Source: Squalus acanthias (Eukaryota). Taken from it: a DNA stretch of 64,000 bases. A program made the translations under genes and the position numbers. The number at the start of each line of letters is the position of its first letter. Within the stretch, counting starts at the first letter, position 1. Shown here in pieces: positions 7,522 to 40,063 of the stretch. The notes under the pieces were generated by a model. The model was not told where the DNA came from. It saw nothing but the letters and a program-made list of their open reading frames with translations, and ran no database searches. Where the stretch lies: NCBI GenBank assembly GCA_030390025.1, contig CM059440.1:65720001-65784000 (forward strand), in the 5' to 3' direction.

Positions 7522-7556
7522 GTTCTGATGAAAGGTCATCGACCTGAAACGTTAAC
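7522..7556 (+). ncRNA. Minimal type I hammerhead ribozyme motif
   Basis: gtt-CTGATGA-a-aggtc(atc)gacct-GAAA-cgtt-aac: both core boxes, 5-bp stem II, palindromic stem III, 3-bp stem I. Confidence 0.65.
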
Positions 7557-23601: not shown

Positions 23602-24657
23602 GGACCTCAAATTTCCCAGCTTCCTTTTCCTACAATCTGCAAGCGTTTGAAATCCAAGTTTGGTGTGGCCGTACTATTTCTCAAATCACCTGGTCTGCAC
23701 CCCACTCCAACGTCAGCCTTAATAAAAAGGCAACATTTAGCAAAACTAGCGACTTTGTCTGGTCAACTGAGCAGCATGATTAATGGGATGTGGTCCTCAA
23801 GGCAGCTCGTGGGCCAACACTAAGTTTAGAATCAGAGCACAGAAGGCGGCCATTTGGCCCATTTTGCCTATGCCGGCTCTTTGTAAAGGTATTAATCCCA
23901 CTTGCCCGCTCTTTCCCCACAGCCCTTGTACCCAGGTTTACTTCATGTGTAATTTTTCCTAAAAAGTTGAACATACAAATGCTTGTCAAATTGTTGTCTT
24001 GTAACACTCCTGTGAAGCGCCTTGGGATGTTTTACTACGTTAAAGGTGCTATATAAATACAAGTAGATGTTGTGAAGAAGCAGAATTCTAATGGTATCTT
24101 GGGCTCGCTTGCTTACTTCATGTCTGGCCTTGTGTGCAGGTACATGGCCAGGTTTCCTGCAACAGCAGCTGACCTGGGTCAGTTTTCGGTTTAACCCTAT
24201 TCAGTTGGGGTTACCCAGATCTACAGTGAACCCCTCAATGGAGCTGGACCATAGAAAGGAGCATTGAGCCACATCTATTTTTAAACTTGTGGGAAAGGTC
24301 ACAGCAACATCACCAGTGCAGACAAGGCATACTGTTAAAAGCGGCAAAAACCCAGGACACAGTTCATCCATCTCACACTTAAAGTATCTCAGAGGAAAAA
24401 AAAATCTGACTAGTGATAATTCATCATCACTCGCGCACAATACAACCTCCAGAACACATAACCAGATACATTTCTCTGCTTTGGGCTGCTTACCAAGGCA
24501 ACATTACCTCTGGTTCACGTGGCCACTCTGCTTGGTATCACCATTCCAGGCCTGCCTACCAGAAGTATTCTGACCAAAACCATCCGCACAACCTCTCAAT
24601 TTATACATCCAAAAGTTCACCAAACTCACCCACTCTAATATAGCCCAGTATGCAGTT

Positions 24658-25101
24658 GCACCAGCCCCTGTCTGGGTGGGGATCCCAGCGCACCAGCCCC
24701 TGTCTGGGTGGGGATCCCAGCGCACCAGCCCCTGTCTGGGTGGGGATCCCAGCGCACCAGCCCCTGTCTGGGTGGGGATCCCAGCGCACCAGCCCGTCTG
24801 GGTGGGGATCCCAGCGCACCAGCCCCTGTCTGGGTGGGGATCCCAGCGCACCAGCCCGTCTGGGTGGGGATCCCAGCGCACCAGCCCCTGTCTGGGTGGG
24901 GATCCCAGCGCACCAGCCCCTGTCTGGGTGGAGATCCCAGCGCACCAGCCCCTGTCTGGGTGGGGATCCCAGCGCACCAGCCCCTGTCTGGGTGGGGATC
25001 CCAGCGCACCAGCCCCTGTCTGGGTGGGGATCCCAGCGCACCAGCCCCTGTCTGGGTGGGGATCCCAGCGCACCAGCCCCTGTCTGGGTGGGGATCCCAG
25101 C
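24658..25101. repeat. 32-bp minisatellite, ~14 copies
   Basis: Unit gcaccagcccctgtctgggtggggatcccagc; two copies lack 2 bp. Confidence 0.97.
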
Positions 25102-25827
25102 AACAGGATCCACAATTCTCTTGGGATCCCAGTACGAACCATCAATTGGAAATCTGTTATTCAAATATCCTGCTCAGACATTCAATTTTTTTTTTTTTTT
25201 TTAAACTTTTATATTAAAGTTATTTTCATAAAATTATTGACACAAACATTCCAGAACCACAGATGGACTTAAACAGGCTGGAAATCTTGTGTCCGCACCC
25301 GGTTGGGAATATTTTCACTTTCTGGCTGCGTTTTAAGGATTCATGTTTAAAAACATGTTGGATTGTTGCTGACTCTGGAACACGCCATTAGAACAACCCT
25401 TCACTCCTGGAAGCGTTGGCAAGCACCTCTGCCCCACCACTCTGGGCAAAAGGGTAAGAATACACAGCATCCATAAATCAAAGCTTCACTTTAAACCATT
25501 GAAGCTGCCTGTATAGCAGCATACACACTCGAACACACACAGCAAACTGCCAACCAGTACAGTTACACCAACGCTACACAGGAGCACAGATCAGTTTAAC
25601 TGGAATGTCTCCCCAAGCACACATCTGGTCTGTGCCATTGCCCCACGTGCCAAATTCAGGCAACCCTGCAATGAACTGCTTGTTGCAGTGTTTGTCTGGA
25701 TTTACTAAATTCACCTGTTTACAGACCACACCAGTTCCATTTGGCTTGGACTCGGATTGCAATTATTGAAGAGTTCCCAGTCTAATTGATCTGAGCTTTT
25801 TGAACATTACCGTTTATCACCACTTAC

Positions 25828-30285: not shown

Positions 30286-31817
30286 ATGTATCCCAGGCTG
30301 TTAAGCGAAGCAAAAGAGGAAATAGCAGAGGTCTTGACCATCATTTTTCAATCCTCTCTGGCTTCAGGTGTGGTGCCAGAGGACTGCTAATGTGGTACCC
30401 TTGTTTAAAAAGGGAGAAAAGGATAGACCGAGTAATTACAGGCCAGTCAGCCTAACCTCGGTGGTGGGAAAATTATTGGAAAGAATTCTGAAGGACAGGA
30501 TAAATCTTCATTTAGAAAGACACGGATTAATCAAGGATAGTCAGCACGGATTTGTTAAGGGAAGGTCATGTCTGACAAACTTGACTGAATTTTTTGAGGA
30601 AGTAACAAGGGGGGTAGATGAGGGTAGTGCGTTTGATGTAGTGTATATGGACTTTAGCAAGGCTTTTGATAAGGTTCCACATGGCAGACTGGTCACGAAG
30701 TTAAAAGCCCATGGGATCCAGGGCAAAGTGTCAAGTTGGATTCAAAACTGGCTCAGAGACAGGAAGCAGAGGGTAATGCTTGATGGGTGTTTTTGTGACG
30801 GGAAGGCTGTTTCCAGTGGGGTTCCACAGGGCTCAGTACTAGGTCCCTTGCTTTTTGTGGTATATATCAATGATCTTAACTTGAATATAGGGGGTATGAT
30901 TAAGAAGTTTGCAGATGATACTAAAATCGGCTGTGTGGTTGATACTGCAGAAGGAAGCTGTAGACTGCAGGAAGATATCAATAAATTGGTCAGGTGGGCA
31001 CAACAGTGGCAAATGGAATTCAATCCGGAGAAGTGTGAGGTAATGCATTTGGGGAGGGCTAACAAGGAAAGGGAATACACACTAAATGGTAGGATACTGA
31101 GTAGTGTAGAGGAACAAAGGAACCTTGGAGTGCATGTCCACAGATCCCTGAAGGTAGCAGACCAAGTAGATAAGGTGGTTAAGGCGGCATACGGAATGCT
31201 TGCCTTTATTAGCCATGGCATAGAATACAAGAGCAGGGGGTTTATGCTTCAACTGTATAAAACACTAGTGAGGCCTCAGCTAGAGTACTGCAGTTCTGGT
31301 CACCACATTACAGGAAAGATGCGATTGCACTAGAGAGGGTACAGAGGAGATTTACAAGGATGTTGCCGGGAGTAGAGAATCTTAGCTATGAGGAAAGACT
31401 GGGTCTGGATTCCTTGGAACAGAGGAGGCTGAGGGGAGACCTTATTGAGGTGTATAAAATTATGAGGGGCATAGATAAAGTGGATAGAAAGGACTTATTT
31501 CCCTTAGCAGAGGGGTCAAAAACCAGGGGGCACAGATTTTAATAATTGGGGGAAGGTTTAGATGGGATTTGAGGGGGAATTTCTTCACCCAGAGGGTTGT
31601 GGGGGTCTGGAACTCACTGCCTGAAAGGGTGGTAGAGGCAGGAACCCTAACCACATTTTAAAAAGTACTTGGATGTGCACTTGGGATGCTCTAACCTGCA
31701 GGGCTACAGACCAAGAGCTGGGAAGTGGGATTAGGCTGGATAGCTCTTTGTTGGCCGGCGCGGATACAATGGGCCGAAATGGCCTCCATCCGTGCTGTAA
31801 CTTTCTATGATTCTATG
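30286..31817 (+). mobile_element. CR1 LINE, 5'-truncated, RT domain frame largely intact
   Basis: ORF 30368-31333 has [41 protein letters not shown]; tail ttctatgattctatga. Confidence 0.95.
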
Positions 31818-31965: not shown

Positions 31966-32581
31966 ACATAAGAACACAAGAAATAGGATCAGGAGTAGGC
32001 CATTCGGCCCTTCGAGCCTGCTCTGCTATTCAATGAGATCATGGCTGATCTTCTGCTTCAATTCCATTCACCGGCCCTATTGCCATATCCCTTGATGCCC
32101 TTACTAGTCAGAAATCTATCGACTTCTGTTTTGAATATACCCAATGACTGATCCGCCACAGCCCTCTGGGGTAGAGAATTCCAAAGATTCACCACCCTCT
32201 GCGTGAAGAAATTTCTTCTCATCTCAGTCCTGAATGGCCTACCCTTTATCCAGAGGCTGTGGCCCCTCGTTCTAGACTCCCCAGCCAAGGGAAACGTTCT
32301 CCCAGCATCCACCCTATCAAGCCCTGAAATAATTTTGTATGCTTCAATGAGATCCCCTCTCATTCTTCTGAATTCAAGAGAATACAGGCCTAGTTTACTC
32401 AATCTCTTCTCATACGACAATCCCGCCATCCCAGGAATCAATCTCGTGAACCTTCGTTGCACTCCCTCTATGGCAAGTATATCCTTCCTTAGGTAAGGAG
32501 ACCAAAATTGTACTCCAGGTGTGGTCTCACCAAGGCCCTATATAATTGGAATAAGACTTCCTTACTCCTGTACTCAAATCA
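31966..32581 (-). mobile_element. CR1 LINE 3' fragment
   Basis: ORF 32058-32462 QRRFTRLIPGMAGLSYEKRL...RVVNLWNSLP. Confidence 0.92.
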
Positions 32582-33223
32582 TACATGTTCCATTGAAAGC
32601 CCTTCGTCTGGGTCCCTTCTAAACAGCATGCTGAATGTTTTACCTTTCACCCCTCATCCACGCTGAACAAGTCTTGACCCAGCAGCTCTGCACAGCCAAA
32701 TAGGTAGAGCTGAACTAACCAACTAAAATGGTCCCTGCACTCCAGCCACAACACCAGTAACCAATTGTTTTCTTGCTGCTTGCAAAAGACTGGACGACTG
32801 CTAACATTGTGCCATTGTTTAAAAAGGGAGAATGGGATAGACCGAGTAATTACAGGCCAGTCGGCCTAACCTCAGTGATGGGAAAATTATTGGAAAAAAT
32901 TCTGAGGGACAGTATAAAATAATTTAGAAAGTCATGGATTAATCAAGGACAGTCAGCATGGATTTGTTAAGGGAAGGTCGTGTCCGAGTCTAACTTGATT
33001 GAGTTTGCAGATGATACAAAAATTGGCTGTGTAATTGATAGTGAGGAAGATAGTTGTAGACTGCAGGAAGATACCAATGGACTGGTCAGGTGGCAGAACA
33101 GTGACAAATGGAATTCAATCCGGAGAAGTGTGAGGTAATGCTTTTGGGAAGGGCTAACAAGGCAAGGGAAAAATGTGAGAAGTCGCACAACACCAGGTTA
33201 TAGTCCAACAGCTTTATGTGAAA

Positions 33224-33260
33224 TCACAAGCTTTCGGAGCGCTGCTCCTTCGTCAGGTGA
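33224..33260 (-). ncRNA. Minimal hammerhead ribozyme motif (sense to ARID1A pre-mRNA)
   Basis: Reverse strand tcac-CTGACGA-a-ggagc(agc)gctcc-GAAA-gctt-gtga. Confidence 0.65.
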
Positions 33261-33530
33261 AGTGAAGAGATGCATATAGACACAGCATATATAGTCAGAG
33301 AACACTGCCAGATGAAAAAGTTTTTTGTTTTCCATACAGACCCCAGCATCTGCCACATTGTCTTTGATGTAATGTTTTCCTGACTGACCTGTTTGGACAC
33401 CATCCACACCTTTGATTGCCGTGATTATCTCTCTGCCGAGGTGTGATAAAGGGCAGTTGGAAAGATTAACTGTAATCATCTGGCAGTGTTCTCTGACTAT
33501 ATATGCTGTGCCTATATGCATCTCTTCACT

Positions 33531-33567
33531 TCACCTGACGAAGGAGCAGCGCTCCGAAAGCTTGTGA
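33531..33567 (+). ncRNA. Minimal hammerhead ribozyme motif
   Basis: tcac-CTGACGA-a-ggagc(agc)gctcc-GAAA-gctt-gtga; stem I tcac/gtga, palindromic AAGCTT stem III. Confidence 0.65.
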
Positions 33568-34168
33568 TTTCAAATAAAGCTGTTGGACTATAACCTGGTG
33601 TTGTGCGACTTCTCATATTTGTCCACCCCAGTCCAACACCGGCATCTCCACATCAAGGCAAGGGAATGCACAGTAAATGGTAGGATACTGAGAAATGTAG
33701 AGGAACAGAGAACAGAGTGCATATGCACAGATCCCTGAAGGTAGCAGGACAAGTAGATAAGGTGGTTAAAGAAGGCATACGGGATTCTTTCCTTTAATAG
33801 CCGAAGCATAGAATAAGAGCCGGGAGGCTATGCTAGAACTGTATAAACCACTAGTTAGGCCGCAGCTGTGTCAGTGAATAATTGAGCAACTGACTGATCT
33901 AACAGGAGCAAATGAGAAACACCTAATCACTTGTGCTAATTTAAATCTTGGTTTATCCATTTACCTTCGGTTACTTGTAACTGACTCAGAATAAATAGAG
34001 ATCTGATCCCAGCACAAACGGTCAATGGGCCAAACCATTCACTCCAGCTTTATAGATTAAAGGCATCAAGTGTAACCCTGATTATCCTTAAGTTTATAGA
34101 AATGTTGATCCAAGCAGAATATTTTAGGTTTAGCTCATTCCAACTTTCGGAATTCTGTTCAGACCTAC

Positions 34169-34304
34169 CTCCTCTCAAATCCAGATCCGTATGCATACTG
34201 CTGCCGCTGCCCCATACCTGTTGCAGGAGGGCGACTGTAAGGGTCTCCCATTCCAGTATTGGAAGCAGGTCCGGGAGACATGAAAGGGTCAGTCCCAGGA
34301 GCTG
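34169..34304 (-). CDS. ARID1A: ARID1A exon 15 (tandem CAGCAG acceptor: boundary 34304 or 34301)
   Basis: (A)APGTDPFMSPG...GDPYSR...YAYGSGFERR|gtaggt. Confidence 0.9.
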
Positions 34305-35660: not shown

Positions 35661-37255
35661 ACTGTCACTTTCCAAAGCTGCTAACTGCATACAGTTGGTT
35701 TGAGCTGGAACAGAACGCTGCATTTTCATCAAATCCAATTGTAAACCAAAGACAGGCACATCATTCTCGCTTCATCCTCTTACTCACTATACTCCTCCCT
35801 GCCCGCTAGTAGTGCTGTTCCAAAGTTTTAAGCCCTGCAATCTCCAGCAGCACTGGCAAGGAACGCATATTATCCACCTCAGTTGAGAGGGAGGAGTGAA
35901 GCAGTAACTGCAGCTGCTCTGTCAATCCATAATGAGCTGAAGAAGGGATGGGTGTCTCCACTGAAGACATTCACACACTCAGCACAAGCACGAGGGGCAG
36001 TGAAAAGCAGGATCTGATTGGAGTCTTGTTGTGGAGAGGTACAACTCTGAGACTGACCTTTCGCCCAGATCAGAGAGCCCACAGCAGGGCTTGAAATAAA
36101 TCCAGTCCAACAAAATTAATTCAACATCAAAATAATTATCTTCAGGAGTTCGCTGCTGAAAACTAGCATCACAGTATTAAATTTAAATATTATAGTCAGA
36201 CCCTACCCATTTGAGTCTGACCATTGAAAGCTGTAATGAGAACACGTGTTAATCATCATTGTCTCAGGTTCTGCTGTACACAAGGGGTTATAACGACTCA
36301 TGTCATGGATGGTGCAGTTCAGGTACTCAAGTGACTCTTGTTACTGGTGTACAATACTGTGTTAATCATTATATGCTCTCTCAGGTACTACAGTAGTCCT
36401 GATGACTCATGCTGCTATTCATTAACTGCGAGCAAGGAAGGTCAATAGAAGGGCAGCCTTATTTACACCCAGCCCTGTTTCACCTTTTCACCCTGCTCAG
36501 TCAGGGGATTCCCCTCCTGCTCAGTGACATCTCACTGCCTTAAGAATGTGGCTGGGCTCCCCTTACTCTGCAGCAAGGGGATTAGGTTACATTGCAGTCG
36601 GGCGACTGGGCTCGGTTTCATTCACATTAATAACACTCTCCCCATTCATCAACTTCCTGAATCTGGGAATCTCCAGGGAATCTGGGATGGCAACATGCAA
36701 AGCAGTCAGCTGGAATGTCATTTGAGCCAATGGGCAGGGCCGACATTCCTGGAATTCCTTCCTTTCCCCATGCGATCCTCTGTGCAGTGCTCACACAGAA
36801 TGCCCATGTAAGGACTGACTCTGCCGGCCATGGACAGATCATCGACTCACCCAATCGCCCGACTAGGATGGCTAGTGAAAATTAAAAATCTGCAGTTAGC
36901 CTTCAAGCAAATACCAGCCTCACTAATAAACGATTGTCCCAGACCCTGATGACATTTATTTAAAGTGGCAGAGAGAGGTGGCCCTGAACAGAACAATTCA
37001 GCTGCCGGGGAGACTGGAAGACCTGTAAATGAAGGCAGCTTGACTGCAGAGCGATTCCTCAGTCCCAGGGTTTCCTATTCTGAGAGCCTGTTTATACGGC
37101 TCAAAAACACTCAGCGTCCCTCCATCCTGTTGGTGACAACAGAGGAAGAAAACCAGTGGCAGCAGGTTCAGTTGCTGCCTCCCACGTCTATCCTGACCAG
37201 TTTCTGCAGGGCCATCCTGGCATTTATCACCACCTTGTCACCAATCAAAAGAAAC

Positions 37256-38039
37256 TGCGCACGGCACGCAGGCACAAACGCAGGAACCCGTGCACCGCAC
37301 GCAGGCATAAACGCAGGAACCAGTGCACGGCACGCATGCACAAACGCAGGAACCCGTGCACCGCACGCAGGCACAAACGCAGGAACCAGTGCACCGCACG
37401 CAGGCATAAACACAGGAACCAGTGCACTGCACGCAGGCACAAACGCAGGAACCCGGGCACCGCACGCAGGCACAAACGCAGGAACCCGTGCACCGCACGC
37501 AGGCACAAACGCAGGAACCCGTGCACCGCACGCAGGCACAAACGCAGGAACCCGTGCACCGCACGCAGGCATAAACGCAGGAACCCGTGCACCGCACGCA
37601 GGCACAAACGCAGGAACCAGTGCACCGCACGCAGGCATAAACGCAGGAACCTGTGCACCGCACGCAGGCACAAACGCAGGAACCCGTGCACGGCACGCAG
37701 GCACAAACGCAGGAACCCGTGCACCGCACGCAGGTACAAACGCAGGAACTAGTGCACGGCACGCAGGCACAAACGCAGGAACCCGTGCACGGCACGCAGG
37801 CACAAACACAGGAACCAGTGCACCGCACGCAGGCACAAACGCAGGAACCCGTGCACGGCACGCAGGCACAAACGCAGGAACCAGTGCAGGCACGGGCGCA
37901 GGGACTTGTGCAGGCACGGGCGCAGGGACCTGCGCACGGCACACAGGCACAAACGCAGGGACCTGAGCAGGCACGGGCGCAGGGACTTGTGTAGGCACAG
38001 ACGCAGGAACCTGCGCATGGCATGCAGGCACAAACGCAG
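37256..38039. repeat. 33-bp CpG-rich minisatellite (~19 copies) grading into a 24-bp variant
   Basis: Unit gcacgcaggcacaaacgcaggaacccgtgcacc; gives HAGTNAGTRAP-type ORFs in all frames. Confidence 0.97.
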
Positions 38040-40063
38040 TTCTTTTTAAAAAGTTTCTGTCTTTGCTCACTTGAACAAAGGCCAGGACTAAGAGCAGTAA
38101 TAGGCTGTTTAGTGAGTCTTACCCTTCAGGGTTTCTCAAAAATATACATGCGTATGCAGTTTTAAAAATGAACACAAAGTAATGTCCTCCTAATCAGAGC
38201 TCAAGCTTTGCTTTCAGAGGCTGGGCAGTTGACAGATTTCTTTACTTTGCCTCGGTTAACAGCCTCTCCGGAGCTTGTTGCTTTCAAAGGAGCGTAGGAG
38301 GTGGTGATGGGTTCAGGCAGTGACAATAACATCACATTTCTGCTGCTATCCTCAAAGATGCACAAAAGATGGTCAAGAGTTTGTTTAAATTGCATTTACA
38401 GATCGTACTTGAGGAAGAGCCCAATTTGAGGCTTTATCCCGGAACATTCTTCAACAAGCAACAATCTTAAGAAATGGCTGAGATAAATTATTTCACACAA
38501 ACTGCTATTGTTCTTCTCAAACTGTCTCTAGGTCTTCCTGTATAATGCAAAATACCCAGCCTAAACCTGCTGGAACAGGCTCGAGGGGCTAAATAGCCTA
38601 CTCCTGTTACTATGTAAAGGGCAGCCAGGCAATCAGTTCCCAGGCTTCTGACACTTGTACCTAGTACATACAAACAGCTGAAGGAGACTGCCTCAGAGGG
38701 AAAGCACCTGATCATGTCCAGCTAATCTCTGGTGCTGCATAACCTCACGGCAAGGTAGCGTGGACATGAACCTGATTTATCCAGTATAGCATAGCATTTT
38801 GGGATCATGAATTATCTGCACCAATTCAAATAGATCATTTGTATTAAGTGAAGTTACCAGGTACAAGGTGTGATAACAGTCTGCATCGTTATTCCTCCCA
38901 TCAACGTATAACCAGTGAACAAGTAACAACGGTCCTCATGACCCAGGTAACTAGAGTTCATTTAAATATCATGTGATATATTTTAAGCAGGAGAGATTGA
39001 CGGGGAAACACCTTCGGACACCACCAGGTATGACGTGACCTACTAGCACTGCAATGGAAGGCACCTTAAGAGGAAGCACTTAGAATGGTCATGGATCCGG
39101 AATTGGGGCAGTTTACAATAAGAGATCAGGAAAACAAAAGTTGAAACATTAGAGCAAAAGTCAATATAACAAAAGTGGTCCAGAAGGGGAGAACAAATCT
39201 GTGCTCCAAACCATGGCCATCCCTCCAGGTGTCTGTCACCATACTCCTAATGAGCTGCAAATTCACACTAGCTGTGTGCGCCCTTCTGCTAAATTCAGCT
39301 CATTTACAACCGATACACATGGAAATCCAGCAAGAGTCTGGAAACCAAGTGATGGAGAAATCTTCACAATGCCAGTAAATTTTATTAATCCGTGTTACCT
39401 TCACATTGGCAGTACAGTGTCCCCCACCTAATGACACCATCACAAGCTTATTTCAATAAAAAGCACATGATACAAACAGAATAAGGATGGACTTGTGCAA
39501 CAATGTGAGGTCAGTCACTCGTGAATTATACATGAAATCACATAAACCATTATTTATACCTTTTAGTCTCACACTTCTGGCTATGGCAATGTGTACATCA
39601 GGGGTTCTCAACCAGGGGGCTGCCAGTTGGTTTGTCCCATCAATATATAGAGACTACTGATTATGCCATAAACAATCAGTAGTCTCCCCTGTTTATTAAG
39701 ATGAGTGGAATAGTCTCAACTATAAATTCAGGTTCTTACTGTTGGACACCATTTGAACGCGTACACAGGTCCCTTTGTGTGTCACTGACTTTTACAGCAG
39801 TATTTATCTCGGTACAGTACTTCTTTTTTGATCCAGCCCTATTTGCTTCCACATTCCACTTGCCGCTTTTAACTATTAAATAATGGTGGGAAAATCCACG
39901 AGTTAGTCTGGCATTGCGTGGGCCATGGTAGCACAAGCCTTCCTTGCAACCCTTTTCTTTCCCCTTGTGCGGAGCCACCTGTGTCGGTTGGAAGCCGCTC
40001 GCGCATTTGAAAAGGGTGCAGTCAATGGAAAAAATGCACGCGCCACTTCACCTTTTGTGTGTT

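Follow-up and report, generated by a model that had tools for sequence, protein, structure and literature searches.

Head-to-head pseudo-LTR ends of a Penelope-like element, each with a hammerhead motif, in an ARID1A intron of Squalus acanthias

An intron of ARID1A in Squalus acanthias holds a short palindrome with a hammerhead ribozyme motif in each arm, and it raises the questions of how such a structure is made and whether it matters to the gene that carries it. The origin of the inverted repeats and tails of Penelope-like elements (PLEs) is debated: self-priming has been proposed (PMC3846280), as opposed to internal initiation seen in vitro (PMC11167929). A young family with tens of thousands of copies, such as the one described here, makes this origin countable.

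In the window (the whole 64,000-nucleotide stretch analysed, positions 65,720,001 to 65,784,000 of contig CM059440.1), the insert is 483 bp long and is bracketed by a target-site duplication (TSD) of 13 bp, 100% identical in its left (33158-33170) and right (33654-33666) copies; its first two bases equal the end of the element too, so that the true TSD is 11-13 bp. The arms (33167-33315 and 33476-33624) are 149 nt long, 97% complementary and separated by 160 nt; counted inside the TSD, they measure 145 nt with three mismatches, at q196, q258 and q301 in the numbering of the direct pseudo-LTR (pLTR) copy (q1-338, where q1 is window position 33316). The fold of the insert has a z-score of -27.7, with none of 100 shuffled sequences equally stable. 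Together the flanks give one contiguous alignment to an intact CR1-like reverse transcriptase (RT) elsewhere in the window (Pfam label RVT_1), with an overlap of exactly 13 bp, and form the 5' part (32793-33170, plus strand) and 3' part (33654-33867, plus strand) of a degenerate fragment that was already dead, with stops, frameshifts and a 313-bp deletion. We take the split RT to be CR1-like from its motifs. An earlier note on this DNA had described a 483-bp insert with a 13-bp TSD, near-perfect arms of about 145 bp and a 160-nt spacing that splits a CR1-like RT, and the repeat and flank alignments confirm it. Another CR1-like RT fragment (30338-31333, plus strand) lies in the same intron with a 331-codon open frame, and has an opposite copy at 32058-32537 (66% inverted match).

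The two arms are unequal copies of one sequence. The left arm (33171-33315, minus strand) is an inverted, tail-less, 5'-truncated pLTR copy that runs from q305 to q161, while the right one (33316-33653, plus strand) is a direct, 5'-truncated copy (q1-338) that ends in a tail of about 33 nt (33621-33653, plus strand), a segment that leads into the start of the open reading frame (ORF) in full-length copies. The 160-nt 'spacer' (33316-33475, plus strand) matches the upstream pLTR/3'UTR of longer copies, being contiguous with the arm at loci L017, L044 and L050 (about 99%; 99% across all 341 nt in L017) and lying downstream of the ORF stop in L033. It is thus not a loop, but upstream sequence of the direct copy, beyond the point where the shorter arm stops. 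The ORF itself is absent from the window insert. A branch-point-like motif, a pyrimidine tract and CAG occur at 33590-33630, in the tail region just 5' of the ORF start, and possibly mark the 3' splice site of an intron in the PLE.

The same 37-nt motif is found, exactly, in both arms (33531-33567, plus strand; 33224-33260, minus strand), as the earlier note had claimed, and an insert of this kind has two hammerheads because each arm includes the motif. It fits the minimal type I hammerhead, with the core boxes, a 4-bp stem I, a 5-bp stem II, a bulged A, a palindromic stem III and CUU as the NUH triplet; the predicted cut falls after 33563 in the right arm and between 33228 and 33227 in the left, which is the one in sense orientation in ARID1A pre-mRNA. 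The proposed anatomy matches that of metazoan PLE hammerheads (PMC4209133), which likewise lack a helix III loop and have a palindromic 15.2-16.2, a bulged base before G10.1-C11.1 and a 4-bp helix I, and for which pairs of motifs on opposite strands, 100-700 bp from each other, are described. For these, the same study reports no monomer cleavage and low dimer cleavage; their helix II has 7-8 bp, as against 5 bp in the shark motif. When dimers of the shark motif are modelled, an inactive stem II dimer (-30.5 kcal/mol) is favoured over the active form (-20.7 kcal/mol).

Conservation of the motif was examined in 12 diverged, non-independent copies, in which CUGA, GA, GAAA and the stem III palindrome show no changes, as against 22% upstream, and the 48 nt downstream show 3%; such changes as fall within the hammerhead are at N7, loop II and H17. 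The contrast expected between the core boxes and their flanks is seen upstream, but the downstream side is conserved too. A compensatory stem II variant occurs in three of 100 listed sites, and G-U wobble variants are present as well. An Rfam scan of the insert returned no hammerhead match; a match to MIR821 was discarded, since its score falls well short of gathering and merely the hairpin accounts for it. A literature search largely confined to open-access papers found no paper on shark PLE hammerheads.

The right arm, used as query against the species' own genome, has 862 candidate matches, the best 40 of them at 97-100%, and the longer copies run upstream into an ORF that encodes an RT followed by a CX4CXXC linker and closes with a GIY-YIG-like part. 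One locus, L033, is full-length but frameshifted and reads pLTR, tail, ORF (RT) and a pLTR ending at q303, with the hammerhead-carrying arm on both sides of the ORF. The Penelope-like origin proposed in the earlier note, to be checked by looking for an autonomous element with the same arm, was thereby upheld. The source-element ORF (L031, L033) matches RVT_1 at 35 bits, above the cut-off; the C-terminal GIY-YIG (E = 5e-4, 20.7 bits) is below the Pfam cut-off of 22.6, and scanning the longer ORF gave no match to it. Atlas look-alikes stand at 0.95-0.97, and two of the four clusters shown carry GIY-YIG in 18-31% of members. Read as motifs, the L031 ORF has the cysteine linker (CX4CXXC) between the RT and the endonuclease (EN), and two cysteines between GIY and YIG. 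The Neptune clade is described by a CX2-5CXXC linker between RT and EN plus two cysteines between GIY and YIG (PMC8557442), and by these residues the source element shows Neptune-type cysteine motifs, of which the linker is common to Nematis also.

The features of EN+ PLEs were thus found together: an ORF with an RT and then a C-terminal GIY-YIG, hammerhead-bearing pLTRs, an inverted 5'-truncated copy, a one-sided tail and a short TSD. The insert is two 5'-truncated pLTR ends of an autonomous Penelope-like element, head to head within one TSD. In keeping with the recent insertion that the earlier note inferred, the family is young, one other copy being 100% identical over 178 nt. The layout is a textbook one for PLEs and already known: complex insertions of EN+ PLEs comprise a direct pLTR, an adjoining inverted 5'-truncated pLTR, a one-sided tail of 30-40 bp and a TSD (PMC3846280, PMC8557442). 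Our insert resembles them in its head-to-head arms, single-arm tail, short TSD and TATA-like box before a TCACT motif. It differs in that the window copy is ORF-less, ORF-less pairs making up about two thirds of the insertions sampled here (48/72), and in that the pairing of a tailed with a tail-less arm is nearly strict in this genome. Two more minimal hammerhead-like motifs with an unchanged core, a different stem II and a different stem III palindrome occur in the window at 7525-7555 (plus strand) and 51730-51690 (minus strand), and are probably the ends of another PLE family.

The exact 37-mer hammerhead occurs 12,930 times genome-wide (reversed control, 0), a downstream 26-mer 20,101 times and a looser hammerhead pattern 31,811 times; contigs of two further organisms likewise hold many family copies. 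Among the first 100 exact-motif sites listed, a count by eye gave 10 pairs that face head to head within 500 bp and none that face tail to tail; by extrapolation, about 1,300 loci would carry two exact hammerheads in opposition. With these numbers, and with a layout already published, the rarity and ARID1A relevance implied by the earlier note find no support. The locus itself is of little weight, being one of thousands; the genome as a whole carries thousands of near-perfect hairpins of 80-150 bp, a large potential load of double-stranded RNA. To sample the family blind to structure we took all 100 listed 26-mer sites at the start of contig C1 (its first ~26 Mb, with at least one segmental duplicate), leaving out arms of less than 88% identity or ending before q280. 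This gave 120 arms in 72 insertions, namely 48 inverted pairs and 24 solo copies; for pair statistics 38 further C1 loci were added, bringing the pairs to 75.

The outer ends of these pairs follow a simple rule. In 72 of the 75, one arm is tailed and ends near q340 and the other is tail-less and ends near q300 (P = 4e-18 against an expectation of 0.5). The TSD is 12-14 bp in 53 of the 75, and a short TSD around the pair implies that each arose in one event. The inner ends are less regular: an excess of more than 8 nt on the 5' side belongs to the tail-less arm in 19 of 72 pairs (at times 150 nt, as at L021) and to the tailed arm in 18. The arms of a pair are related in sequence, sharing subfamily variants at 4.8/kb as against 1.2/kb when shuffled (0/1000 permutations as high), with 9.2/kb discordance as against 16.8/kb when shuffled, and five private variants are common to both arms of a pair. 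Such sharing rules out two templates drawn independently from the whole family, and implies either that one (tandem) RNA or two closely related ones served as templates, or that the arms were homogenised later.

In our judgement the insert probably consists of two pLTR ends made by separate reverse transcriptions, primed at the two cut ends of the target, at a locus that is neutral. The endonuclease would make a staggered cut of 12-13 nt, after which both cut ends of the target DNA would prime, one 3' end at a distal RT start (q~340), yielding the tail, and the other at a proximal start (q~300-305). The two cDNAs would then stop, in most family members at q206-221, likely the capped 5' end of a pLTR-driven RNA, and be joined with little or no microhomology. 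The mechanism is supplied by a PLE of Anolis for which cutting and extension of both strands, and two RT starts with the tail lying between them, have been shown in vitro (PMC11167929). The wider proposition seems to us evenly balanced: that the family records a dimeric enzyme priming both strands, always from one distal and one proximal RT start and on two pLTR templates (possibly joined via the hammerhead palindrome), and usually copying only ~90-130 nt to the capped 5' end. If true, two-ended priming would explain, without fold-back, why pLTRs are inverted, why the tail is on one side and why short palindromes are so many. A literature search largely confined to open-access papers found no twin-priming or start-site/cap account of PLE inversions.

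The main competitor is a true fold-back, the origin that the earlier note had named, in which a cDNA or antisense template self-primes and is copied back, the centre is trimmed asymmetrically, and the endonuclease resolves the end so as to leave a tail (as modelled in PMC3846280). Self-priming has been published for rotifer PLEs (PMC3846280), and the strong concordance of paired arms, for subfamily and even private variants, is predicted by fold-back as well, so that this reading is no more than weakened. Junctions, too, often overlap by 1-4 nt (23 of the 49 parsed, from 75 pairs, the remainder having no exact seed). Against it, an arm that outruns its template cannot come from simple copy-back unless trimming follows, and in this family the longer arm may be of either kind. 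The arms of the window copy moreover differ at q196 and q301, two non-CpG alleles that are family-wide (31/73 and 46/77 arms, among query-selected loci), although q301 is 4 nt from the end of the left arm. Family-wide, the non-CpG position q264 is discordant between paired arms in 5 of 63 (P = 0.002, the background being 1.3%), and a loop insertion in 14 of 46, a marker whose letter varies and which may therefore be a recurrent RT slip, not inherited. The two RT starts reported in vitro also match the two outer ends (PMC11167929). We accordingly regard fold-back as unlikely. The loop insertion, one base in the stem II loop at q236 (window 33551), is confined to the tailed arm in 12 pairs and to the tail-less one in two, and may be an arm-specific RT slip.

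That the palindrome moves as a whole, as a non-autonomous MITE- or retrozyme-like unit, would account for the few junctions that recur in identical form where the sites are unrelated (four cases of q232/q213, two independent ones of q140/q206), but the inner ends are scattered over more than 40 positions, the q161/q1 junction of the window copy was found nowhere else among the own-genome loci compared, and no tandem retrozyme layout is present; we find such mobility scarcely credible. Like the non-LTR retrozymes (bioRxiv 10.64898/2026.07.22.740005), the insert is non-coding, hammerhead-bearing and pLTR-derived; unlike those head-to-tail tandems, it is a single head-to-head pair with a TSD, and the head-to-tail tandem units that define them are absent from it. 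The four C1 loci with the q232/q213 junction (L151, L152, L186 and L188) share two identical inserted bases in different flanks, reflecting either a favoured way of joining or the re-mobilisation of a small palindrome. At L127 (C1:7560000-7564000), two insertions 1.1 kb apart both have a q211/q249 junction on the 4-nt stem I complement.

Of 120 arms, 68 begin at q206-221 (mode q213-214). A start at q213 lies 30 nt past a TATA-like box, on a TCACT initiator-like motif and just 5' of the ribozyme. Rotifer pLTRs have a TATA-like box ~20 nt before a TCACT initiator-like motif (PMC3846280); D. virilis Penelope is described as TATA-less (PMC2377424). Both arms of the window copy retain the box. On the right arm (33498-33528, plus strand) the box is at 33498-33504 and the initiator-like A, at q213 and the commonest 5' end among family copies, at 33528, antisense to ARID1A; on the left arm (33263-33293, minus strand) the box (33293-33287) and initiator-like A (33263) point downstream in the ARID1A sense, a putative promoter to judge from the family 5' ends and PMC3846280.

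A G directly precedes q213 at 2,631 sites. Among the non-templated junctions listed, G stands before q213 in 51/100 and before q214 in 16/100 (counted by eye; P = 2e-7); about 20 of the remaining listed q213 junctions without G are a sister subfamily, and the extra base at some junctions is found on both arms. The G before q213 suggests copying up to a cap, a signal that is confounded because the partner arm is G-rich; G is also common before other start positions (21/47, in a small unbiased set) and occurs at about 7 of 17 genome-flanked q213 junctions, counted by eye. The window copy is a minority type, since both arms pass q200 in one of 48 unbiased pairs, and its passing q206-221 on both arms makes a read-through or 3'-pLTR RNA its likely template. 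Among loci L001-L064, a long arm (past q165) has an adjacent partner past q200 in 17 of 21 cases (by eye, with one spurious pairing), as against one of eight unbiased pairs with a long arm, possibly an effect of age or of query selection.

Did the ribozyme act on these templates? As many as 106 of the 120 arms read through the cut site, and 5' ends do not pile up there (q249): q247-250 holds five of 120 arms, compared with 19 over q222-246. We rejected a footprint of in vivo cleavage at q249, as the ends are too few and 4-nt stem I microhomology accounts for two of the five. Arms that read through without a pile-up argue that uncleaved RNA was the usual template. In this the family is like the Anolis carolinensis Poseidon element PAc (PMC11167929), which uses uncleaved RNA as template and has its tail between two RT starts. 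The cutting and extension of both target strands was seen in vitro for PAc and is likened here from insertion sequences. The shark family differs from PAc in its CX4CXXC linker, of the Neptune/Nematis type, in a hammerhead ~90 nt upstream of the ORF start where that of PAc overlaps it, and in the asymmetry of its pairs, PAc being described as without strand bias in start site (PMC11167929). For a link to the 'hairpin-tail' Eulor repeats, a literature search largely confined to open-access papers found no paper.

We then ask what the insert means for its host. The gene is ARID1A rather than ARID1B (141 versus 104 bits), on the minus strand; the host intron spans 34168 to 29230 and is preceded by the exon at 34169-34304 (minus strand). 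The earlier note's 'intron 15' fits the observed exon order only under what we take to be the human numbering. The flanking ARID1A exons are spliced in four probable RNA runs, whose contigs pool all family copies; the two exons just upstream are joined to each other there. Empty-site-like ends in contigs of four runs derive from other CR1 copies, and no contig there spanned the insert. In the predicted fold of the pre-mRNA (-344 kcal/mol), the sense ribozyme is paired with the antisense arm at a probability of at least 0.999 and stem II has a probability of ~1e-18; the suggestion that a hairpin would lock the sense ribozyme is thus borne out as a prediction. Because the antisense arm is transcribed before the sense ribozyme and is predicted to capture it, the intron would not self-cleave, and the lock is a by-product of insertion geometry.

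Could the palindrome nonetheless serve ARID1A as a functional RNA element, whether as a substrate of ADAR or Dicer, as a ribozyme switch under regulation or as an outward-facing promoter pair? A near-perfect duplex of 145 bp is predicted in the pre-mRNA ~515 nt from the upstream splice donor, both arms keep a TATA-like box that most short copies lack, and of 16 inverted pairs of at least 100 bp in the window this is the sole one above 90% identity. On the other side, it is one among thousands of like insertions, young and nested in a dead repeat, the flanking exons look normally spliced in RNA contigs, and metazoan minimal hammerheads are reported to cleave little as dimers and not as monomers in vitro (PMC4209133). 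We consider such a function very improbable: the insert is likely neutral at ARID1A, an ordinary locus in which it likely has no special role. Elsewhere in the ARID1A introns, two long minisatellite arrays (24570-25200 and 37090-38050) yield repetitive open frames.
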